Origin: a virus
IMG/VR virus record: IMGVR_UViG_3300022745_000628
Location: 1-64,000 of that record
Strand: one strand, 5' to 3'
DNA length: 64,000 bases
The first letter of the stretch is position 1. Each line of letters opens with the position of its first letter. Positions 12,832-59,006 of the stretch are shown here, in pieces. The position numbers and the translations under genes were made by a program. A model generated the notes under the pieces. It was not told the origin of the DNA. It did no database searches and worked only from the letters and a program-made list of their open reading frames with translations.

Positions 12832-13796
12832 TGCGCGTAGCGGCGATGGTGGCTACTCGGCTGCCGTATGGCATACCGCAATACGTTGCGAATATGCGTT
12901 GGGCGCTGCAAACGTTAGATTACGATATTCACGTGGTACTAGCTGGCGACGTGGATTCCGATAATTTACCCAAGGGTGTTACGTATCATCACGTACCGTT
13001 GGACGAAAACAAATGGCGGGACACATACGAGCTCGATTTACCGCAACTACTAGAAGGTAACAAGTACGACGTAATCGTACTCTCACAAACGGACCAACAG
13101 TTTAAGCAGCGAATATATGGCCAAGTACAAGAGGCTTTAACAAAATCACGCTGTATTTTGACGTCTGAATATAATGGGTTTGAGATTCTAGATTCGAAGA
13201 ATGTATATGTCTATCCGCGGCTGCATGACGTCGGGGCCATTTATCCGGCAGAGTTGTTAAGGCGATCTCGGGCAGACGGTATATCCTTTAGCAGCAAGCT
13301 GACGCATCCTTGGCTGATTGAACAGATCAAGGCTGTAGCATCAAAAGGTTATTCCCTGCATTTCACGCCAATGCAGGATTACCCAGAAAACGGGTGGAGC
13401 GAATGCATGCTCGAGTTCTCGCTATGGGGGTTTTTTAACAATGTGCAGGCACTTAAACGAGATATGCTTGTGCATTTCAGCGGATGTGAGCGCATACCCT
13501 TCCGATATCCAGCTATTTTCGATCCCACAATCACGGTACCGGCATTAAATGACATTAATACGGATAGCAGATCTGCGTTGGATCAGGTGGCTACATCGCT
13601 GGCCTTTCTGCATTTCACCGGAGATCGGATAGCTACTTCAGAAGTACTGCGATATATCGGCAAGTCCGACGAAGGCCCGAGAATTGTGCGCATATTAAAG
13701 GTTTTGAATCAAATAGGGCCGCAGTGGCTGGGCAAAGCTGAATTAGCCAGAGTAGCAGAGCTGTTTCACCGGTTTAAAGCTAAATTTGATGTTTAA
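12831..13796 (+). CDS. Hypothetical protein, possibly GT-A-fold glycosyltransferase
   Basis: 321 aa; N-terminal beta-alpha pattern, YDVIVLSQTDQ in the DxD position. Confidence 0.45.
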   Translation: MRVAAMVATRLPYGIPQYVANMRWALQTLDYDIHVVLAGDVDSDNLPKGVTYHHVPLDENKWRDTYELDLPQLLEGNKYDVIVLSQTDQQFKQRIYGQVQEALTKSRCILTSEYNGFEILDSKNVYVYPRLHDVGAIYPAELLRRSRADGISFSSKLTHPWLIEQIKAVASKGYSLHFTPMQDYPENGWSECMLEFSLWGFFNNVQALKRDMLVHFSGCERIPFRYPAIFDPTITVPALNDINTDSRSALDQVATSLAFLHFTGDRIATSEVLRYIGKSDEGPRIVRILKVLNQIGPQWLGKAELARVAELFHRFKAKFDV

Positions 13797-13813
13797 ACGC
13801 GTCATATATTGTG
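13778..13813 (+). promoter_or_regulatory. Bipartite phage promoter motif, copy 1
   Basis: CTAAAT at 13780, GCGTCATATAT at 13799. Confidence 0.75.
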
Positions 13814-13905
13814 TACGGATTGCTATTGTTAGCAATTCGCGGTAACTTACCAAATCACAATATTTTTAGGCGTTAGGCGGCTTACGGTAATAGGAGACGT
13901 TAACG

Positions 13906-14868: not shown

Positions 14869-14904
14869 ACCTAAAACAGTTGCAAAAATGCGTCATATAT
14901 AATG
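14869..14904 (+). promoter_or_regulatory. Bipartite phage promoter motif, copy 2
   Basis: CTAAAA at 14871, GCGTCATATATAAT at 14890; preceded by hairpin 14821-14867. Confidence 0.75.
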
Positions 14905-15032
14905 GATACTCATATCCATTCATAGAGTCTTTTTTTAGGTAAGAAAGGTGCTCTACAATGTAACATAGCGGACTTCTTCAATCCCGCTGATGTTGGATAA
15001 TCTCTCAGGAATTTATTGGCAGGATGACCAAT

Positions 15033-25817: not shown

Positions 25818-25852
25818 GCTAAATCTAGGACGAAAACGCGTCATATATTATG
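25817..25852 (+). promoter_or_regulatory. Bipartite phage promoter motif, copy 3
   Basis: CTAAAT at 25819, GCGTCATATAT at 25838. Confidence 0.75.
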
Positions 25853-25882
25853 TACATAGCGTAGCAATTCGCGCGCTTTTTT

Positions 25883-26278: not shown

Positions 26279-26280
26279 CA

Positions 26281-26548
26281 TCGCGCCCAGCAGCGGTTAC
26301 AAAAGTACATCGGTACTATAGTACCGATTGGCTGTCCTGGCAGGCGACGCGCTTGTCACACAATTAGCAAAAGCTATCCAACTATAAGCAGGCTGTCAAA
26401 GCCGGTAATTCGAAAAAGCGAAGTACGGCTGCCCGCTATAGCAAAGCAGCCGAATAGCTCTATCGTGAGAATAGTATTTTGCGATCCGCTGCAAATTAAA
26501 TTGAATCAATATGCTGCGGGCGAGGTAATTCTCGCCCGCGCATTTTTT
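26281..26548 (+). ncRNA. Candidate structured RNA ending in an intrinsic terminator
   Basis: 20-bp perfect palindrome 26309-26328; CGGCTGC/GCAGCCG stem; terminator 26511-26548. Confidence 0.4.
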
Positions 26549-26579
26549 ATTTCTATTAGCCCACTTCACAAACCACTGT

Positions 26580-34967: not shown

Positions 34968-35040
34968 AGTTATCAAAACGATAGTATTTCATCGTTTTGA
35001 GTCCGATTGTCCGAGCGACTATAAACTGCTCGGTTGAGGA
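34968..35040 (-). ncRNA. 3' part of putative TnpB omega/reRNA scaffold
   Basis: Minus-strand hairpins CCGAGC..GCTCGG and CAAAACGAT..ATCGTTTTG next to the right end; 5' extent unknown. Confidence 0.55.
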
Positions 35041-36070
35041 TATTGACGGCCGCGTTTGTATCCGCGTCCGTTTCGTACCCACAAGAAACACACCGATAAG
35101 CCAGGCCTACCCTGGAAGATCTATCGATGTTTCCACACCTGGAACAAGTTTGCGAGGTGTAAGCGGCAGGAACATCCTGTACGCCCACACCCTTAGCCGC
35201 GCACTTGTCTTTGATCTTTTGCAATGTCTTGGAATAAACCCACGACGCCATTTTATTGGCGAATCGCCTGGACATTGTTCGAGAGGCTCGGGTGCCGCGC
35301 TTAACGTTTTTAAGCGCTTCAAGCACTACGTAAGTAGGCTGCTCTGCCGCCAGCATCTGATTTACAGCCTTGCCGACAAGGTTGTCTCGTTGCTGCATGG
35401 TGCGCTGGCGGTTTACAGACCCTCGTTTTTGTCTTGCTAGCTTTTCGTAAACCCGTTCTAGCTCTTGCCCATAAATATTGCCGGTAGAAGTAGCGAGTAA
35501 ACGCTTGTAACCGCAATCCACGCCTACTGGTTTATCGCCAGGCGAAGTAGTCGCAGCTACTTCTTTTTCAAAGCAAACATCTAGATAAAATCTGTTACCA
35601 ACTTGCCGCAGTCTGGCGGACTTACTTAGCTGCCAACCGTCTGTAACAAACGCGTTGAAGTGCTTGTGTTTGTGCGTAGGCAGTGCCAGTTTAATCCCCC
35701 TCCCTAGTGAAGCCAGCCTGACCCAGAAATCGAACGAAGTAGTTTGAGCGTTTCTGTCGAAGGTTACAAATCGGCTGTCTAAATTGATCACAGATCGGCG
35801 AAACACAGGTTTACTTGTGCATCGCCCCCGCGATAATCTAGCTTTCGCGGATTTCACGATCTCGGAAGCTTGCTTACCTAAGCATTGCTGCAGCCTTGCG
35901 GATAGCCAACTATCTACTTTTTGCGTTACAAACTTTACCTTAGGAGCCTCCCAAAGTAAGTCGATGTAAAGATTCACTACGCGAACGGCTTCTACCATAA
36001 CTTCGGCTAACGCAGTCTTTTTGCCCGCGTTGCTGTACGCCAAATTGAGTTGGCAACGTCTAATCTCCAT
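34973..36070 (-). CDS. tnpB: TnpB RNA-guided endonuclease
   Basis: RuvC I GVDCG, RuvC II VLEAL, Zn finger CSRC/CVSC, RuvC III DADTNAAVNI. Confidence 0.95.
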   Translation of the reverse strand: MEIRRCQLNLAYSNAGKKTALAEVMVEAVRVVNLYIDLLWEAPKVKFVTQKVDSWLSARLQQCLGKQASEIVKSAKARLSRGRCTSKPVFRRSVINLDSRFVTFDRNAQTTSFDFWVRLASLGRGIKLALPTHKHKHFNAFVTDGWQLSKSARLRQVGNRFYLDVCFEKEVAATTSPGDKPVGVDCGYKRLLATSTGNIYGQELERVYEKLARQKRGSVNRQRTMQQRDNLVGKAVNQMLAAEQPTYVVLEALKNVKRGTRASRTMSRRFANKMASWVYSKTLQKIKDKCAAKGVGVQDVPAAYTSQTCSRCGNIDRSSRVGLAYRCVSCGYETDADTNAAVNILNRAVYSRSDNRTQNDEILSF

Positions 36071-36617
36071 GTTGCAACTCCTGTATCAATTTTTCTGTGT
36101 TACGTTGCGTCCTACGACGCCCATAAAGGCGAGCGCAGAAACTGGTGACAATGGCCACAAAATCTTGCATTAGGTCGCTTTTGTCGTCCATCGCTGGGTT
36201 TATGACTACAAACTCACAAGCTGGTTTTGCTGCTACCAGCAAGTTAAAACCAAATCGCGTCAGCCGGTCCTTATGCTCTATCACAATCCTGGCAACTGTA
36301 TCGTCTCGCAAAATCTTTAGTAACTTTTTACGATCGTCATTTAGTCCGCTTCCGATCTCCGTAACAATGTCTGAGACTATCCAACCTTTGGCAGCGCAAA
36401 AGCTAGCTACGCGTTCGGCCTGGGTTGTCAGCTTGCTTTTGTTTTGAGCAGAGCTCACGCGCGCGTAAACAATCGTCTTGCCAACTATTGCGGCATCTTC
36501 TATACACACGGTACCAGTTGGCAGCCTATACGCCCCAGGTATTTTTCCTGCCTTGAATTGCTTCCACGCGGTTTGGTAAGTAATGCCGTGTTGTTTTGCG
36601 TAATCTCGTAATCTCAT
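36060..36617 (-). CDS. tnpA: IS607 TnpA serine recombinase/transposase
   Basis: N-terminal MerR-like HTH, YARVSS catalytic motif, EHKDRLTRFG. Confidence 0.95.
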   Translation of the reverse strand: MRLRDYAKQHGITYQTAWKQFKAGKIPGAYRLPTGTVCIEDAAIVGKTIVYARVSSAQNKSKLTTQAERVASFCAAKGWIVSDIVTEIGSGLNDDRKKLLKILRDDTVARIVIEHKDRLTRFGFNLLVAAKPACEFVVINPAMDDKSDLMQDFVAIVTSFCARLYGRRRTQRNTEKLIQELQHGD

Positions 36618-45046: not shown

Positions 45047-45082
45047 ACCTAAATTTAAGCCATAAATGCGTCATATATAGTG
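45047..45082 (+). promoter_or_regulatory. Bipartite phage promoter motif, copy 4
   Basis: CTAAAT at 45049, GCGTCATATATAGTG at 45068. Confidence 0.75.
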
Positions 45083-45172: not shown

Positions 45173-45646
45173 GTGAACACATGTACCGAGTTTGAGCGCA
45201 ATGTGCAACTAATCAGTTTGAAACTGATCCCGATCATTTCGAAACAGGCAAGCATAACCTGCTTGGCAGATGTGACCAGTCTGGCCATAGTTATGTTGAA
45301 CAACATAAACGAAGCCGTTGAGCAGTGCCCACGGTTAAACCGAGACACGGTTATTACACTGGCCGTCCAAATTTTCGATATCGAGCTCAATCGTCCGATC
45401 GCTGAAGGCGATGATGCCGAAGGTATGGAATGGATGGCTCTGGCGAAACACAGCGCGGTCGAAGCGCTGAAAATCTGTTCGGAGCTGTCAAACCGCATGC
45501 AAGCGGCTATGGACAGAGATATTACGCAACGTAAAGTGCAACGTACTTTATACGTATCGCATTACATCGGAAAGGCGCTTCGCGGTGTCCGCGGTGCGAC
45601 AACTCGAATTTGGAATATCCGATCGCGCGCACGCGCGCACGCGTAA
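45173..45646 (+). CDS. Helical hypothetical protein with basic C-terminus
   Basis: AGGAG RBS, GTG start. Confidence 0.7.
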   Translation: MNTCTEFERNVQLISLKLIPIISKQASITCLADVTSLAIVMLNNINEAVEQCPRLNRDTVITLAVQIFDIELNRPIAEGDDAEGMEWMALAKHSAVEALKICSELSNRMQAAMDRDITQRKVQRTLYVSHYIGKALRGVRGATTRIWNIRSRARAHA

Positions 45647-45647
45647 A

Positions 45648-46021
45648 ACGTATGTGCTGAACGGGTAACAACAGCATGTCGTCAAGCGCTGTTGTCAGTG
45701 CATATGTCGGGTGGCGTGTGATATTGTTGCTAGTTTAGCACGGTACTCACACGCCACTTTAATACACTCTGGGTCGCAGTATCCAGAGCACGCGAGCGGG
45801 TAATGATTAACTTGAGACCGCAACTCAAGTCCCCGCTCGCTTCTTTTTAACTCGTACTGCTGTAGCCAACTGCGTTGCGGTACTGGCTACGATGTGGCAT
45901 GAGGCGCTGGGTGTTACCAGGTAATTACTTATTGTTTTCCATCCTATAAGTGATATCGGGAAAAACAACTGCGCATTTTGGCATGCGCAGTTGTCGGTAG
46001 CGCCCAGCGCTTTTTTTTTTT
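45648..46021 (+). ncRNA. Candidate novel multi-domain structured ncRNA (about 370 nt)
   Basis: At least 8 stems with G-U pairs, e.g. 45648-60/45695-707, 45711-21/45747-57, 45904-18/45996-46010; ends in T11. Confidence 0.65.
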
Positions 46022-46128
46022 GATTTGACCAACTGTTTAAAAGCGAGGATCGTTTTGACAACTTTTTATATGTCGTTTTGCATCATTCCAGCTAGTGCTC
46101 GGCAGCTGGCCATCACACAAGTGTGCAG

Positions 46129-46518
46129 ATGAGTGCCAAAGCAGGCTCAATAAAACGAATTCGTAATAGGATTGTAGCCGAGTTACAGCAGGATATCCTT
46201 GCGCAATCGGATGCGCAAAGTCTTTACATAATTAGCTATCCATCGGCTGAAACGGGATCGCAACCTATTTATAGATACTTTAACGGTAAGTTTGACGGGA
46301 CTGTGTCCACACACGACCTAGGTGCATTTTTGCAGGTGTGTCAATTGTTTATCCGTTTATCTAATAAAAATGTGCGAGTGATGCATCTCGGTAATATGCA
46401 GCCTTACACGCCGTTTAACCCAAAACTTGCTACGCAAGTAATATCCGGGTTTGAAACATGTGGAGACCTTTTTACACGCAAAGCGTTGATTGCGAAATAT
46501 GCTGTCATTTCAAAGTGA
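46129..46518 (+). CDS. Hypothetical protein
   Basis: ORF 46123..46518. Confidence 0.6.
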   Translation: MSAKAGSIKRIRNRIVAELQQDILAQSDAQSLYIISYPSAETGSQPIYRYFNGKFDGTVSTHDLGAFLQVCQLFIRLSNKNVRVMHLGNMQPYTPFNPKLATQVISGFETCGDLFTRKALIAKYAVISK

Positions 46519-46789
46519 CCGCGAACACGTGGTAAGGTATTTTAACAGTATGCGCTGGTCGCGTGTGCCTACCGGGTCTTGGCCAACGCGAAACATCACT
46601 GCTTTTGCACATATATTGTCTACGCGTTCCGTCGCTATAGCGGGTACCAACGCCTACTGGCTCGCGGCCAACATTAGAAACGATTCAGATAGTGCGCTGG
46701 AAGATTTATTTATCCGACGCAATGCGCGATTACCACAGGCGGTGTTTATATACTTACTCGCGCTACGCGCTGATGGTTTAGATGAATAA
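46490..46789 (+). CDS. Hypothetical protein
   Basis: Coupled ORF. Confidence 0.55.
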   Translation: MRNMLSFQSDREHVVRYFNSMRWSRVPTGSWPTRNITAFAHILSTRSVAIAGTNAYWLAANIRNDSDSALEDLFIRRNARLPQAVFIYLLALRADGLDE

Positions 46790-47180
46790 CCAAACCAGTT
46801 TTCAGCAGAATTTGCAGAGTGTGCTTGCGAACATGTATACCGTCATCCGATTTGCAGATACACGGCAAAACATTAACGTGTTTGGCCCGCAAGAAGCCAG
46901 CTATCAAATTAGAGATATCGATACTGGTAGATATGCGTTTGTGACGCACCAGTATTTATATTCGAAAGAAGGCATCGTAGTTTTAACGTGTAACGACTGG
47001 CCAGCGCTCGAGGAAGTGTGTGGGGCTACAGGTTTGGAATGGAATCCTACGAGCTCGAGTTTGGAGCGCATATTAACACAAAATGGTGTATCTGCGAATG
47101 TTAGCTCTGCGGAAATCGTTGGAGTAATAAGTCGCCCATTCGGGAACACATCGCACCTCGCGCGTTTACCGCAGCGATGA
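46782..47180 (+). CDS. Hypothetical protein
   Basis: 132-aa coupled ORF. Confidence 0.6.
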   Translation: MNNQTSFQQNLQSVLANMYTVIRFADTRQNINVFGPQEASYQIRDIDTGRYAFVTHQYLYSKEGIVVLTCNDWPALEEVCGATGLEWNPTSSSLERILTQNGVSANVSSAEIVGVISRPFGNTSHLARLPQR

Positions 47181-47242
47181 TGTTAGTTACGCACGTTTAT
47201 TCGTAATAGTTTTGTTCTTCATATTTAACGGGAGATGTCGCG

Positions 47243-47764
47243 ATGAGTACCAATGTTTTGACCTACAAGTCCGGTTGGGACAATTTCTTGGACCGTAATC
47301 GATTTGAATTATGGCCGGTGTACAAGAAAAAGAAGGCTGAGTTCTCGCTGAAAGATTGGGCGTTTGCCACAGAAAACGAGATAATGCGTATTGCTGGTGC
47401 GGTGGCTCCGGCAATGACTACATATTGTGACGGAACGAGAGAGTTTTTGGCAAAGCCTGTTTGGCATGCCCGGCAAATAATCGAGATTCCGGCGTCATGG
47501 CTGTTACCCGTCAATAAAAAAGGCCACGCGGCTTGGGGCACTTCGGACACCTGGGCGTTTATACTGTCCGAAGAAGGGTTTCAGAGGCATCGCGAACGAC
47601 TTGTAGCTGGGTTTATCGATGAAACACGTGCGCCGAGCTACATGTCATTTGACGCTTTTGAAATTGTAATCAAAAGTATGATTACTCGGTGGAAGCAGGT
47701 CGTTTCCTGCCGAACTGTCAAGATGTCGCGTTGTAAACAAGTTGAAACTGGAGCTATGGTATGA
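47243..47764 (+). CDS. Hypothetical protein, paralog of 47761..48153
   Basis: EIPASWLLPV..FILSEEG..VKMSRC. Confidence 0.7.
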   Translation: MSTNVLTYKSGWDNFLDRNRFELWPVYKKKKAEFSLKDWAFATENEIMRIAGAVAPAMTTYCDGTREFLAKPVWHARQIIEIPASWLLPVNKKGHAAWGTSDTWAFILSEEGFQRHRERLVAGFIDETRAPSYMSFDAFEIVIKSMITRWKQVVSCRTVKMSRCKQVETGAMV

Positions 47765-48153
47765 AAGTGCGTATGCGGGCTTGGGATATGTTTATGGATG
47801 ATCCGTCTGCGGACGAATATCCAATTGCGCGGGATCCTTATTGCGGAGACCGGATCGCGATGGGTATCGTAGATAGATCGGCAGGAGCATCCACATTGGA
47901 TATACCCGACAACTGGTTACTACCGGTCGGAGATGGCGGAGAATTGCACGCTCCGACGGATAGACACAACATTATCGGATTCATACTGTCGGCGCAAGGA
48001 TTGATCGACAACTACAAGCGCATACGTAACGGTTTTAATCGACAGCAAAAAACTGGGTTTGAAGCGTACGTGCTTTTAACACTCGAGAACGACTGTAGTT
48101 ATAAGGAAGCTACCGCGCGCAAGATTCAAATGTCACGATGCGTGCCATATTGA
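47761..48153 (+). CDS. Hypothetical protein, paralog of 47243..47764
   Basis: DIPDNWLLPV..FILSAQG..IQMSRC. Confidence 0.7.
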   Translation: MKVRMRAWDMFMDDPSADEYPIARDPYCGDRIAMGIVDRSAGASTLDIPDNWLLPVGDGGELHAPTDRHNIIGFILSAQGLIDNYKRIRNGFNRQQKTGFEAYVLLTLENDCSYKEATARKIQMSRCVPY

Positions 48154-48366
48154 TTTGCACCTCGTAGTTGGCCGTCGTATAGGCTTATTTTTGAAAAGGT
48201 AGGGTATTCAACGAAAGTGAGTGCGCCGCCTGCGGGGTAGCGGCAATAACTGTTTGCGCGGACAACCGCCAAAGCATTGTCGCATTCCTCAAAGATTGCG
48301 ACATTAGCGACTATACCATTTGTGCTAATGATGTCGTACAGCAGACACTTTAATCTGTCTGAGCGG

Positions 48367-48408
48367 CCAGGTTGCGGATCTGTAAAAGGATCCGCAACTT
48401 GGTTTTTT
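48367..48408 (+). terminator. Intrinsic terminator
   Basis: GTTGCGGATC/GATCCGCAAC stem plus T tract. Confidence 0.7.
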
Positions 48409-48422
48409 AGCTATCAGCTACT

Positions 48423-48458
48423 AGCTAAATTGCGAATAAATACGCGTCATATATAGTG
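48423..48458 (+). promoter_or_regulatory. Bipartite phage promoter motif, copy 5
   Basis: CTAAAT at 48425, GCGTC at 48444; 36 bp identical to 48985-49020. Confidence 0.8.
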
Positions 48459-48984: not shown

Positions 48985-49020
48985 AGCTAAATTGCGAATA
49001 AATACGCGTCATATATAGTG
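48985..49020 (+). promoter_or_regulatory. Bipartite phage promoter motif, copy 6
   Basis: CTAAAT at 48987, GCGTC at 49006. Confidence 0.8.
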
Positions 49021-49680: not shown

Positions 49681-49716
49681 AGCTAAATCCGACTTGAATA
49701 TGCGTCATATATAGTG
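49681..49716 (+). promoter_or_regulatory. Bipartite phage promoter motif, copy 7
   Basis: CTAAAT at 49683, GCGTCATATATAGTG at 49702. Confidence 0.8.
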
Positions 49717-50031: not shown

Positions 50032-50235
50032 AAATCATTGATTTCCCAAATTAATGATTTTGAATTTTATTTAGGTAAATCTAAATAATGTTCAATAAAT
50101 CCAGGGATATTGCGTATAGTTTGTGGTGAAGATAGCCAAAGGCTGTTGATTTCTCAACAGCTTATTTGCTTAGGCGGTAGTTAAGTACCGCTTAATTGTT
50201 GTTTGCGGGGCGCGACCCTGCGACCGTTATTTTTT

Positions 50236-50259
50236 TAGCTATCAGCCCATTGGTAGAAT
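50236..50259 (+). promoter_or_regulatory. Putative class-II promoter TAGCTA-N12-TAGAAT
   Basis: Matches 6371-6394; precedes AAGGAG RBS. Confidence 0.4.
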
Positions 50260-54000: not shown

Positions 54001-56313
54001 ATGACGTTTGACGTAAGAAACCTAACAGGCTGGGTAGAGAACAAACCAGCAATTCAAGAAACTGTTGCCGAACACGGAGAGCTCCGACGCGTAGCAAGCA
54101 ACCTTATTGGCGCTGAACAGAAGGACGTGTTCCTTTGGCGCCCGTTGCTAAAGGTTAAGCCTACGTGGCGTAGGAAGGCACAAAAAATCGGTGATTGTTC
54201 GCGGAAGGGGGCATTAATTGCCCTTAAGGACGGCACACTCAAAGCCATTGAAACCATTAAGATTGGTGAAGAAGTCATCTCCGGTAATGGTAATGCTCGA
54301 GCCGTTACAAACATTGTACATAAGCCTGTCGCCGACTATAACATGGTCGAGCTGCAATTACGCGGAAGTTTGCGGCCATTGCATCTTACAGTTGATCACT
54401 TGCTGCCTTGTATTACGCCAGAAGGCGAATACTTGTGGATACCCGCCGGCGAGATGACCACAAAACACACGTTACTGTTCGGTGTCGGCGTAGACGAATC
54501 TCACACTGTAGCACCTACGTTTGACATGGCGGATTTCTGCCAGGATCCGATTACAGACGAAACACCTAACAACGTCAAGGTAGCTGGATTACAAGAACCA
54601 CGCCGATTCGTACCGGTTACACCAGGCCGAGTCCGGGACAAAGGGGCTGGCACTGAGTGCAATCGATTCGTACAAATGGACGAGCGGCTTGCTTGGCTTA
54701 TCGGGTTGTACGCCGCTGAAGGATCTTTGGATAAGAGTGCGTCCGGGCATCCGCGCCGCATAACGTTCAACCTGGGTAGGCACCGTATGCGTGATGCCTG
54801 CAAAGCTGCGCGCTATATCACGGAAATCTTCGGTATTGATGCCGAAGTGGTACACGTGCCGTCCAAGCCGAGTGTATTGTATGTACGAGTTTGCGGTAAA
54901 ATAGTACCGAATTTCTTTTCAGAAATGGTTTCTGGCAATGTTTATGTCAAGGCTTTGAAGCCTTTGCTGCACAATTTGCCGTTGGAGTTGCGAAAGTCAC
55001 TGTTACGCGGTTGGTTTGACGGAGATGGACATGTCAGTTTGAAAGAAAAGGGTTGCGGTTCTACATCCAGTCGTGCGCTGTTTGAAGATATGCGCAGACT
55101 ATTCCACAGTTGTGGTATGGCTATCTCTTGCAGCGTTATTCCAGCAAAGCCGGGGCACAAAGAAGCGTATTCTATCTCAATACGTAAAGACCAATTGCAA
55201 ACTATTTACCCGTTCGGAGACTACCCGCCAATCGCTCATAAAGACGGAACTGTTACATTTTGGCAACCTAGGCAGCCAGAAACGCAGCCTGCGCCTGCGG
55301 CAACAAATGTAGCTGTGGCAGAAGAAGCGCCTATCGGAGCGCCATCAGCAATTACAGCTATTCGGTATTACACACTTCACGACCAAGTTTATTGCTTGGA
55401 AGTAGCCGAAGATCACTCGTTTTTAGCTGAGGGAGTGGTTATCTCGAATTGTGTTTCGTGGGGCTGTGAAATCGCAATGACCTTGTTAATGGCCCTACAA
55501 GACGTCATTGGCGAAGGGCAATTCATTGAAGAAGCGGCCACAGAAGCTATCTACGGCGGAGCTCGTGTTGAAGTAACTGGTCGACAAGGTGGTTATGAAG
55601 ATGGGGCTGTCGGTGCTTACGCAGCTAAATGGGTAAACAAGTGGGGAGTTATTCTTCGGTTGGATTATTCCAAAGACACCGGAAACCCTGACCACAACCT
55701 TACCAAGTACAGCGGTGACAAAGCCAAAGACTGGGGTAACTTCGGTTGCGGCGGCCGCAATGACAAGGGTGCACTGGATAACATCGCCAAGAAGTTCCCA
55801 TGTAGCCACATTGCACAGGTTACTACGATTCCAGAGGCTATTGCAGCGTTGTCTAATGGTTACCCGGTAACTATTGCGTCCAACGCCGGATTCGGCGATA
55901 TGCGCCGTGATTCAACTGGTGTATGCCGATGGACAAATTCTTGGGGGCATTTAATGTGTCTATGGGGATTACGCTGGGTCAGCGGACATCCTCAATTCCG
56001 TATTTGTCAATCCTGGGGCGACGTATGTTCGGGACCGGATCCTGGAATTCTCGAGTCCATCTCGGACATTTGGAAGCCAGAGGTTAGCGCTGTCGGCAGC
56101 GAATCAAGCGGTCTGCTGTTGCCGCACGCAGACTTCCCGTATCAAACCGATCCTACAAGTGATCCGTGGAATCCGGTATCTGCTACTAGCTGGTGGGCAA
56201 CGGAAGCCGACATAGCACGAATTTTACAGTCTGGAGATTGCTGGACGTATTCCGGCGTACAAGGCTTCGTAAAACGAAACATTGATTTTGCAAAGGGATT
56301 TAGCACATGGTAA
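54001..56313 (+). CDS. Papain-like (C1-type) cysteine protease containing an intein
   Basis: Spliced Q-K-I-G-D|C-V-S-W-G; WGH; QSWG. Confidence 0.85.
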   Translation: MTFDVRNLTGWVENKPAIQETVAEHGELRRVASNLIGAEQKDVFLWRPLLKVKPTWRRKAQKIGDCSRKGALIALKDGTLKAIETIKIGEEVISGNGNARAVTNIVHKPVADYNMVELQLRGSLRPLHLTVDHLLPCITPEGEYLWIPAGEMTTKHTLLFGVGVDESHTVAPTFDMADFCQDPITDETPNNVKVAGLQEPRRFVPVTPGRVRDKGAGTECNRFVQMDERLAWLIGLYAAEGSLDKSASGHPRRITFNLGRHRMRDACKAARYITEIFGIDAEVVHVPSKPSVLYVRVCGKIVPNFFSEMVSGNVYVKALKPLLHNLPLELRKSLLRGWFDGDGHVSLKEKGCGSTSSRALFEDMRRLFHSCGMAISCSVIPAKPGHKEAYSISIRKDQLQTIYPFGDYPPIAHKDGTVTFWQPRQPETQPAPAATNVAVAEEAPIGAPSAITAIRYYTLHDQVYCLEVAEDHSFLAEGVVISNCVSWGCEIAMTLLMALQDVIGEGQFIEEAATEAIYGGARVEVTGRQGGYEDGAVGAYAAKWVNKWGVILRLDYSKDTGNPDHNLTKYSGDKAKDWGNFGCGGRNDKGALDNIAKKFPCSHIAQVTTIPEAIAALSNGYPVTIASNAGFGDMRRDSTGVCRWTNSWGHLMCLWGLRWVSGHPQFRICQSWGDVCSGPDPGILESISDIWKPEVSAVGSESSGLLLPHADFPYQTDPTSDPWNPVSATSWWATEADIARILQSGDCWTYSGVQGFVKRNIDFAKGFSTW
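54196..55449 (+). other. Intein (418 aa) with LAGLIDADG homing endonuclease
   Basis: Starts CSRKGALIAL, ends GVVISN|C; motifs LIGLYAAEG and LRGWFDGDG. Confidence 0.9.
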
Positions 56314-57209: not shown

Positions 57210-59006
57210 ATGTTATTCAAATTCGGCAAGAAACCAGCTCGACACGATCCGAGACTATTTCAACTAAGCAACTACCTTAACAAGGCTACGTTGCCAACGC
57301 CGCCGGCGGAATTTGGCCATGAAAATCTGATCAATTCGTGGGGTATGCTCGCGAACGATCAGTATGGTTGTCATGACGATCAAACTGAGGTATTAACCGA
57401 CGCAGGCTGGCAAAAGTGGCCTGAATACGATGGTAAAGCACTGCTCGGCACAATGAATACGGCCACCGGAATGCTGGAATACCAAGCTCCGTTAGCAATC
57501 AAGCGTGCTCCATATTCGGGAAAAATGTTTTACGCTGACCATGCCGCTATGGATTTTGCGTTGACACCTGAACATCGCATGTATCACCAGCAATACCACG
57601 TTCCTAAGCCGTATACGCCTAATTCCGCTTATTGGGGACAACCTCAATTTAAAACAATTGACAGTATGAGTAAGCGTGTACGTATTCCGGGCTGCACGAA
57701 TGGATTTATTGGTACCGGGCTGGTAGAGTTAGAGATTGGCGCTAGAAAATGGAGTGGCGACGATTTTATAGCGCTATTGTCATTAATTGCGTCTGATGGT
57801 TGGGTAGGCGGGTCTGAGACAACTTGGCGAAGAATATCGTTCTGCTGTTTTAGAGACGACCGTCGCGAAATGGTAGCCGCCTTAGCATTTAGACTAGGCA
57901 TCAAAGAAACTGTCCGTCGCGGAGTATGGGAATTTACCGATCCAGCATTAGCTGATTGGTTACGGGCGAATCTGTTTACATCTCCGACGTACAGAAGTGC
58001 GTTTAAGAAGGTGCCTGATCTGGTCAAAGTGGCCAGCCAATCCCAAATACACAGGTTCTTAGATTTTTACGGAGATCAGCACACGATTGGCGATACTCGG
58101 GCTTACTCATCCACAAGTAAACAAATGATAGACGACTTGCAAGAGTTGCTATTAAAAACCGGCGAGTCTGGCGCTACACGTGAACGACCTTTACGAGAGT
58201 CCCATGCCCGTAAACAAGATGGTACTATGGTGCACAGTCGCTCCCCAGAGCATACGCTGTATCAACGAAAACGCGAGCATCTGGCTATTTGCCAGACCAC
58301 GCGTAATCCTTGCATTCGCGACGACTACTATAACGGAGATATATTCTGTGCAACTGTGCCGAATTCTACGTTGATTACCCGCCGTAACGGTTACCCGCTA
58401 ATTTCAGGAAATTGCTGCGTCTGGGCTGGCGCGGCCCATGAAACTATGCTTTGGAACGCTATGGCCCGTAAAACTGTTATGTTTACCGACGCTGGTGTAT
58501 TGTCGGATTATTCGGCCGTTACCGGCTTTAATCCTCGTAATCCTGCTTCTGATCAGGGCACGGACATGCTTGAAGCTGCCAGCTATCGCCGAAAGGTTGG
58601 CGTACTGGATGGCGGCGGCAAACGACATAAGGTTGCTGCTTATTTAGGCATCACTCCCGGTGATCCAGTCGAACACGCCGTAGCGCTGTACCTGTTTGGC
58701 GCAGTCGGACTAGGTATCGAAGTGCCTAGCAGTGCGATTACTCAATTCAATGTAGGCAAACCGTGGGATGTAGCTAAGCGTTCGTCAATACTCGGCGGAC
58801 ATTACATTCCATTGGTAGCCAAGCGTAACAACATGTTTTCATGTGTTACATGGGGACGAATTCAACCGATGACCATGAAATTCCTACAAAAGTACTGCGA
58901 TCAGTCGATTGTGTACGTGTCGGAAGAAATGCTCACCAACGGCAAATCTCTCGAGGGATTTGACAAAGCCACACTTCTCGCGGATCTCAATGCTTTACCT
59001 CACTAG
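57210..59006 (+). CDS. Second papain-like cysteine protease containing an intein
   Basis: Spliced MLANDQYG|CCVWAGAAH; GGHYI; TWG. Confidence 0.8.
   Translation: MLFKFGKKPARHDPRLFQLSNYLNKATLPTPPAEFGHENLINSWGMLANDQYGCHDDQTEVLTDAGWQKWPEYDGKALLGTMNTATGMLEYQAPLAIKRAPYSGKMFYADHAAMDFALTPEHRMYHQQYHVPKPYTPNSAYWGQPQFKTIDSMSKRVRIPGCTNGFIGTGLVELEIGARKWSGDDFIALLSLIASDGWVGGSETTWRRISFCCFRDDRREMVAALAFRLGIKETVRRGVWEFTDPALADWLRANLFTSPTYRSAFKKVPDLVKVASQSQIHRFLDFYGDQHTIGDTRAYSSTSKQMIDDLQELLLKTGESGATRERPLRESHARKQDGTMVHSRSPEHTLYQRKREHLAICQTTRNPCIRDDYYNGDIFCATVPNSTLITRRNGYPLISGNCCVWAGAAHETMLWNAMARKTVMFTDAGVLSDYSAVTGFNPRNPASDQGTDMLEAASYRRKVGVLDGGGKRHKVAAYLGITPGDPVEHAVALYLFGAVGLGIEVPSSAITQFNVGKPWDVAKRSSILGGHYIPLVAKRNNMFSCVTWGRIQPMTMKFLQKYCDQSIVYVSEEMLTNGKSLEGFDKATLLADLNALPH
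57369..58412 (+). other. Intein (348 aa) with partly degenerate LAGLIDADG domain
   Basis: Starts CHDDQTEVLT, ends ITRRNGYPLISGN|C; LSLIASDG; second motif FLDFYGDQ degenerate. Confidence 0.88.

Follow-up and report, generated by a model that had tools for sequence, protein, structure and literature searches.

Genomic setting

The window, that is, the whole stretch of DNA analysed here, is the first 64 kb of the 193,796-bp IMG/VR record of an uncultured freshwater phage, for which CheckV gives a completeness of 93%. The + strand carries almost all of the phage genes, and a crude model puts the genome at about 93% coding. Judged by its fused beta-beta' RNA polymerase, the nearest cultured phages are Salmonella phage Arash and Vibrio phages D181, D148 and D69, at only about 30% identity. 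The sequence occurs in four freshwater metagenome runs.

We studied a 375-nt non-coding stretch that follows a small orphan gene. The locus is laid out as follows.

45049-45082, + strand: phage-specific bipartite motif (CTAAAT, 14 nt, CGTCATATAT..GTG), a putative promoter
45173-45646, + strand: ORF of 157 amino acids with a GTG start, AGGAG 7 nt upstream and a basic Arg/Ala tail
45648-46021, + strand: the stretch studied, 375 nt, non-coding, 3' of ORF 45173-45646
46022-46128, + strand: unstructured spacer, preceding the next gene block
46129-46518, + strand: next ORF, 129 amino acids, orphan; first of five + strand ORFs up to a terminator at 48365-48410

Nine copies of the bipartite motif lie on the + strand of the genome, in the window at 13780-13815, 14871-14906, 25819-25854, 45049-45082, 48425-48458, 48987-49020 and 49683-49716, and further along at genome positions 137137 and 176411. 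In the form shared across phages, it reads CTAAAT, 14 nt, CGTCATATA..TG. We infer that it acts as a promoter; the copy at 45049-45082 sits 90 nt upstream of ORF 45173-45646. Most phage genes do not have this motif, and other, unrecognised promoter classes must therefore exist.

The protein encoded by ORF 45173-45646 has no Pfam or PHROG family and no RNA-binding signature, its only match among 5.8 billion proteins is to itself, and its Atlas model is of low confidence (pLDDT 0.55). A preliminary description of the locus had suggested this protein as a partner for an RNA made from the stretch, but nothing links the two. The coding region is weakly structured (z -2.1). Its last 25 nt (45620-45646) form an alternating, self-complementary CG-rich repeat that encodes RSRARAHA, and the structured region may extend into this C-terminal tail.

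Neither a motif scan nor a position weight matrix (PWM) found the promoter motif within or just before 45648-46021, and no good sigma70-like site was found at the 5' edge of the stretch. The simplest reading is a single predicted transcript that consists of a leader, the ORF and a 375-nt tail, the last of these making up about 40% of the RNA. Downstream, the spacer at 46022-46128 contains no copy of the motif and no enriched intergenic word; the best PWM match in this part, at 46040-46079, is weak (rank 137 of 193,757). The 129-aa product of ORF 46129-46518 also matched only itself among 5.8 billion proteins.

Elsewhere in the window, a 365-aa ORF on the minority strand (34973-36070, - strand), with a paired entry at 36060-36617 (- strand), has a Cas12f1-like TNB domain (E 4e-20) and a weak match to OrfB_IS605. 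From these matches, it is a predicted TnpB-type transposon nuclease inside an array of small genes; an adjacent guide (omega) RNA is to be expected. LAGLIDADG homing-endonuclease domains occur at 54001-56313, together with a Hint domain, and at 57210-59006, together with a thymidylate synthase match; these ORFs of 770 and 598 amino acids probably contain inteins.

Strength of the fold and coding capacity

The + strand of 45648-46021 folds at -170 kcal/mol (z -8.44), an energy that none of 100 dinucleotide shuffles equalled, and the - strand at -141.9 kcal/mol (z -6.40). The + strand fold is the strongest when set against 129 genome windows of the same size (mean -109, s.d. 13, best -162). Of the 16 non-coding gaps in the phage genome that reach 200 nt, this one has the lowest energy per base, and in a sliding scan with 150-nt windows strong structure continues for longer here than at any other place scanned. 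In the minimum free energy (MFE) fold of the + strand, 260 of 375 nt are paired, giving 130 pairs, of which 17 are G-U, with one A-C mismatch within a helix. All of the helices listed in the preliminary description are present at the coordinates it gave, in the sequence and in the MFE fold; the dense pairing that it reported is real, and its statement that nearly every base falls in a stem is a slight overstatement.

The same description took the G-U pairs as favouring a + strand RNA. The direction is borne out, with 17 G-U pairs on the + strand compared with 7 on the - strand and an energy that is 27.5 kcal/mol better, although this bias stands out only modestly from the genome background (about 1.7 s.d. 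in energy and 1.3 s.d. in G-U count). U tracts occur 3' of stems in the + orientation only. The strand bias is thus suggestive, not decisive.

Each + frame of the stretch contains 5-6 stop codons, and gene callers on three other assemblies made no call within it, in agreement with the earlier view that it is non-coding. No family was matched by a 78-aa ORF on the - strand (45825-46061), and tblastx found no remnant of a former gene in the stretch. We rejected a hidden or decayed gene on account of the closed + frames, the family-less 78-aa ORF and the empty tblastx search.

The preliminary description saw no hallmarks of tmRNA, RNase P, SRP, tRNA or group I/II introns, and searches gave the same answer. 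Rfam 15, which covers classes including riboswitches, ribozymes, group I/II introns, tmRNA, RNase P, SRP, 6S, GOLLD/ROOL/OLE-type RNAs and CsrB/Rsm, gave no matches in the whole 64-kb window at gathering thresholds. With permissive filters over 45500-46150 (E<=10), the only match was to STnc320 (14.2 bits against a threshold of 50, E = 9), which is a chance match. ARAGORN found no tRNA and no tmRNA genes in the 64 kb. The structure is exceptional, and the region is non-coding and outside the known RNA classes.

The stretch is intact in at least four metagenome assemblies (contigs with identical proteins and the four freshwater runs) and is 100% identical among them apart from its terminal T tract. 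This T11 tract, at 46011-46021, is T10 in one independent metagenome assembly, the sole polymorphism across 1.4 kb and all copies compared. Blastn found no homologue of the stretch in 50,697 phage records. A search of IMG/VR with the flanking ORF proteins returned one unrelated high-GC match and nothing else. No paralogous copy was found within the phage genome, and we therefore dropped the reading of the stretch as a repeat or mobile element.

Anatomy of the stretch

The predicted fold is a series of independent hairpins (about eight strong stem-loops) with a single junction and no compact fold. Its elements are as follows.

45648-45707, + strand: hairpin H1, with a 13-bp outer stem 45648-45660/45695-45707 (3 G-U), an 8-nt bulge and a 7-bp inner stem 45669-45675/45688-45694
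45709-45759, + strand: hairpin H2, near-continuous, 23 bp (13+6+4 bp, 4 G-U), with stem 45709-45721/45747-45759 and inner stems of 6+4 bp
45767-45788, + strand: hairpin H3, 8 bp (45767-45774/45781-45788), 6-nt loop
45792-45850, + strand: T1, a 9-bp G+C-rich stem 45792-45800/45832-45840 around a 7-bp stem 45810-45816/45824-45830, then UUCUUUUUAA
45851-45903, + strand: hairpin H5, irregular, 22 bp, around GUAGCCA/UGGCUAC
45904-46010, + strand: Y-shaped domain, with a 15-bp closing helix 45904-45918/45996-46010 (2 G-U), a three-way junction and two arms
46011-46021, + strand: T2 tract, T11 directly after the 15-bp helix, also in the terminator-scan list

H1 starts 2 nt past the stop codon of ORF 45173-45646, and H2 would be long enough for a substrate of the RNase III type. 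The T1 stem ends at 45840 and is followed by UUCUUUUU, with a U-rich tract at 45841-45848. The two arms of the Y-shaped domain lie at 45920-45957 (12 bp, 13-nt loop) and 45965-45994 (12 bp, perfect, 6-nt loop). The T11 tract that follows is the longest T run of the 193.8-kb genome. Both T1 and T2 have the form of an intrinsic terminator, a G+C-rich stem and then a U tract on the + strand, and are putative Rho-independent terminators; the possible division of the stretch at the 45841 T tract, raised in the preliminary description, fits the terminator-like appearance of T1. The three-way junction is an unusual shape for a terminator. A local hairpin at 45999-46011 competes with the 15-bp closing helix, but the long-range helix is far more stable.

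We found no significant long-range pairing and no conserved loop motifs in the stretch. A candidate pseudoknot between UUUUCC, in the loop at 45933-45945, and GGAAAA at 45958-45964 was rejected: by our estimate, about 80 unpaired bases would yield a 6-bp match by chance.

Similar tails in the same genome

Three further multi-hairpin untranslated tails of 207-272 nt lie 3' of ORFs in this genome, and all of them are terminator-ended.

26279-26550: tail, z -5.5
48154-48410: tail, z -4.7 (48154-48412 scored -5.7 in a separate run)
50032-50238: tail, z -5.8 (-5.7 in a separate run)

The coding regions that adjoin these tails reach only z +0.2 to -3.8. The units at 25839 and 49703 bear the same promoter motif as that at 45049-45082. 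Two of the tails, taken as 48154-48412 and 50032-50240, also favour the + strand, by 18-19 kcal/mol each, and the gap at 26279-26579 is without strand bias (-103.5 on the + strand, -106.9 on the - strand). With these, the genome has at least four structured tails, of which 45648-46021 is the most extreme.

Relatives that share the promoter

With the promoter motif as a probe, we recovered as relatives a 186-kb IMG/VR phage (IMGVR_UViG_3300024348_000001, here G001) with an RNA polymerase that is 48% identical, a 74-kb relative (G002) and 64 metagenome loci. Two further candidates (G003 and G004) were rejected as chance motif matches. The promoter motif and a boundary of terminator, T run and AGCTAT are conserved in G001, G002 and the metagenome loci. 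The usual cassette in these relatives has one ORF of 80-130 amino acids and then a terminator of only 34-55 nt. The motif and the AGCTAT boundary recur in dozens of mostly freshwater metagenome contigs, and the motif is a handy probe for this group of uncultured phages.

The flanking ORFs are absent from G001, G002 and the 64 loci by tblastn, and the 375-nt RNA is absent from the same set by blastn, tblastx and two covariance models. The covariance-model matches in the relatives, including those of model R1 of the Y-shaped domain, are generic 40-nt terminators (E >= 0.02).

The most structured spots of G001 coincide with its promoter cassettes, and transcripts of cassettes of this type are hairpin-dense (z -3.4 to -13.4). 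The extreme is an 87-aa gene with ten near-perfect hairpins (z -13.4; L023:1892-2292, - strand, in G001), which has orthologues at L079:7224-7624, L078:3206-3606 (- strand) and L033:16717-17117 (- strand); the other cassette genes lie between -3.4 and -7.4. We considered this 378-nt ten-hairpin unit of G001 as a promoter-to-terminator non-coding RNA gene and rejected it on account of its protein family (13 homologues) and an excess of change at third codon positions. Dense hairpins alone are no marker of a non-coding RNA in this lineage. Across the four orthologues, 131 predicted pairs are kept, with 9 changed on both sides and 11 changed on one side through G-U. This pattern suggests that the gene is selected for its RNA fold as well as for its protein. 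More generally, selection appears to act on the RNA structure of transcripts made from this promoter class, and a role in cis, at the RNA level, is therefore plausible for the hairpins of 45648-46021.

Two G001 cassettes (reverse strand, 1434-1480 and 2497-2543) share a conserved 45-nt 5' leader hairpin (ACGCCATCAG..TTCGG..TGGCGT) located between promoter and ribosome-binding site, possibly a leader element that transcripts of this class have in common.

A proposed structured 3' untranslated tail

The preliminary description presented the stretch as a free-standing non-coding RNA gene. Our findings give this no support: we recognised no promoter belonging to the stretch, which directly follows the stop codon of a promoter-driven ORF and consists of serial hairpins, and three other units have similar tails. 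We favour, at about even confidence, a cis-acting structured 3' untranslated tail with tandem terminators. The same even confidence applies when this reading is joined to the further statement that the tail belongs to a lineage habit of hairpin-armoured early transcripts. The structure and its strength, the strand bias, the lack of coding capacity and of an internal promoter motif, and the terminator anatomy are all observed; transcription, termination, stabilisation and a composite origin are deduced.

We propose that an early transcript of about 930 nt starts at the promoter at 45049-45082 and encodes the 157-aa orphan, and that H1-H3 would form three stem-loops after its stop codon. T1 is probably leaky and would end some transcripts near 45848. 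RNAs that read through would gain H5 and the Y-shaped domain, and the 15-bp helix with U11 at T2 would halt transcription before the next gene block. The stacked stems could protect the 3' end against exonucleases working 3'-to-5' and against endonucleases specific for single strands, and the tail as a whole may insulate the unit from its neighbours. A length about ten times that needed for termination (34-55 nt in the relatives) is left unexplained by the cis-acting tail.

The tail may be composite. From T1 onwards, the sequence reads T5, AACT, 11 nt and CCAACT, which resembles the T run and AGCTAT of a cassette boundary. Compared with the canonical terminator-promoter junctions at 48404, 48967 and 49662, the T1 site at 45844 has AACT for AGCT and CCAACT for CTAAAT, and agrees in 4 of the 10 second-box positions. 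A degenerate junction pattern has a single non-canonical match in the genome, formed by T1 and the sequence that follows, and none in shuffled genomes; the pattern was drawn post hoc, with an estimated chance of about 0.05. H5 overlies a possible decayed upstream box of a promoter (AGCCAACT vs AGCTAAAT) at canonical spacing (PWM rank 1075 of 193,757). Because T1 resembles the neighbouring junctions, the distal 175 nt may go back to an earlier cassette boundary, with T1 as the original cassette terminator; we treat the decayed promoter under H5, and with it a composite origin, as a hint, no more.

Alternative explanations

The stretch could instead give rise to one or more stable trans-acting non-coding RNAs, of about 200 nt to T1 and about 175 nt to T2, cut from the early transcript and serving, for example, as a decoy for a nuclease or RNA-binding protein. 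Such RNAs would account for the size and stability of the structure, its terminator-defined 3' ends and the + strand G-U pairs, as well as for a tail whose length exceeds that of sister-cassette terminators in the relatives about tenfold. The 23-bp H2 is a possible processing site, the stretch is intact and identical (T11/T10 apart) in at least four metagenome assemblies, and giant phages are known to produce small RNAs from untranslated and intergenic regions (PMC11512511). However, a trans-acting RNA would here be without its own promoter, and the layout is that of beads on a string, with one junction and no significant long-range pairing. It also shows no conserved loop motifs, no paralogue in the genome and no homologue in the collections searched. 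No partner was found, with the ORF 45173 protein lacking an RNA-binding signature and a CsrA sponge excluded by one GGA where 5.3 are expected. On this evidence, we regard a trans-acting RNA as an unlikely, if serious, candidate. A more specific form, in which the element or its halves would be released as a stable folded RNA and act in trans during the opening minutes of infection, perhaps titrating a host ribonuclease or an RNA-sensing defence protein, we consider quite improbable. Were it true, the stretch would be the largest of several 'armoured' tails in a lineage where selection favours hairpins in early transcripts, coding sequence included.

It is very unlikely that the stretch is functionless debris, composed of leader hairpins, terminators and a decayed promoter left over from cassettes that lost their ORFs after recombination at boundaries. 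The resemblance of T1 and the following bases to a junction with a degraded -10-like box would fit such a history, as would the terminator-promoter junctions that bound the neighbouring units and the lack of a conserved counterpart in the lineage, and deletion of ORFs mediated by promoter early stem-loop (PeSL) elements has been documented (PMC2839356). But 130 pairs with a single A-C mismatch inside a helix are unlike decaying sequence, G-U-tolerant helices point to upkeep at the RNA level, and tblastx finds no trace of a former gene. A compact genome (about 93% coding by the crude model) also seldom retains 375 nt of junk.

In a further scheme, H1-H3 would alter the polymerase or the fold, by put-type antitermination or attenuation, so that T1 and T2 are passed on time for the five ORFs at 46129-48153. 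The tandem terminators do stand upstream of a block that ends at the terminator at 48365-48410 and has neither a promoter motif nor an enriched intergenic word between T2 and 46129, and the hairpin at 45999-46011 competes with the closing helix. The competing hairpin, however, is far less stable than the long-range helix, there is no likeness to any Rfam antiterminator RNA, a weak motif-like site is present at 46040-46079, and the absence of the motif is the rule for genes of this phage, for which other promoter classes must exist. We consider a read-through switch highly improbable.

Barely plausible, finally, is an element that acts as DNA (for example in an origin, or as a packaging or injection-stop site), through cruciforms or inverted repeats bound by protein: the pairs are mostly Watson-Crick, the - strand also folds (z -6.4) and this is the largest inverted-repeat cluster of the window, but the 17 G-U pairs on the + strand against 7 on the - strand, the U tracts that follow stems only on the + strand, the absence of repeated binding-site words and the lack of a turn in cumulative GC skew here all argue against it.

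Comparison with known systems

At about 370 nt, with many hairpins and a putative Rho-independent terminator, in a phage that encodes CsrA (genome 143744-143944, L101; 39.5 bits, cut-off 27), the stretch has a likeness to CsrB/RsmZ. We nevertheless rejected a CsrA sponge of this type: there is one GGA (at 45959, in the junction) where 5.3 are expected, no AGGA and no Rfam match. No GGA-rich sponge RNA was seen elsewhere in the phage either, the GGA-densest windows (49172, 47686 and 266) starting inside ORFs or within about 40 nt of them.

Stabilising 3' stem-loops are familiar from REP elements and from the RNase III-processed 3' hairpins of T7 early mRNAs, which have one or two hairpins each. 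In the same way, 3' exonucleases would be stopped by stable hairpins of the transcribed strand that come directly behind a stop codon, and H2 has the length of an RNase III substrate. The tail described here differs in having about eight hairpins, including a three-way junction. We found no gene with an RNase III domain and no ProQ gene in the phage genome.

The small RNAs of the giant phages 201phi2-1 and phiKZ are shorter than 250 nt, mostly derived from 5' UTRs and experimentally mapped, and one is conserved across genera (PMC11512511, PMC8244752). The stretch shares with them the character of a non-coding, terminator-ended segment of a phage transcription unit; those RNAs were found through terminators near promoters or genes. 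It is larger than they are, lies 3' of its gene, has no homologue that we could find and is known here from its sequence alone.

The closest architectural parallel that we considered is with the PeSL cassettes of T4-type phages, in which stem-loops act as terminators or insulators and recombination from unit to unit deletes or inserts ORFs (Arbiol et al. 2010, PMC2839356; Comeau et al. 2014, PMC4122927). Common to both systems are single orphan genes in a variable early region, each set off by a composite unit of terminator and promoter, which in this phage and its relatives consists of a hairpin, a T run, AGCTAT and then the CTAAAT...CGTCATATAT motif. There are two differences. The promoter here is not sigma70-like and is probably read by a phage-encoded multisubunit polymerase, and 45648-46021 comprises 375 nt of structure rather than one stem-loop, without the canonical continuation into AGCTAT and a promoter.

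The stretch is thus an orphan structured RNA segment, and UTR-derived RNAs of giant phages are already known; being without homologues, it alone offers little from which to generalise. The wider setting is a group of widespread, uncultured freshwater phages with their own RNA polymerase that have a promoter motif and a terminator-AGCTAT boundary in common. Their transcripts from this promoter are unusually hairpin-dense, in untranslated tails in the phage studied here and, with compensatory changes, within coding sequence in its relatives. Should this structure guard early transcripts against nucleases of the host or the phage, or be a source of small RNAs, it would represent a testable and possibly general strategy of large phages, of which the tail at 45648-46021 would be the clearest non-coding example.
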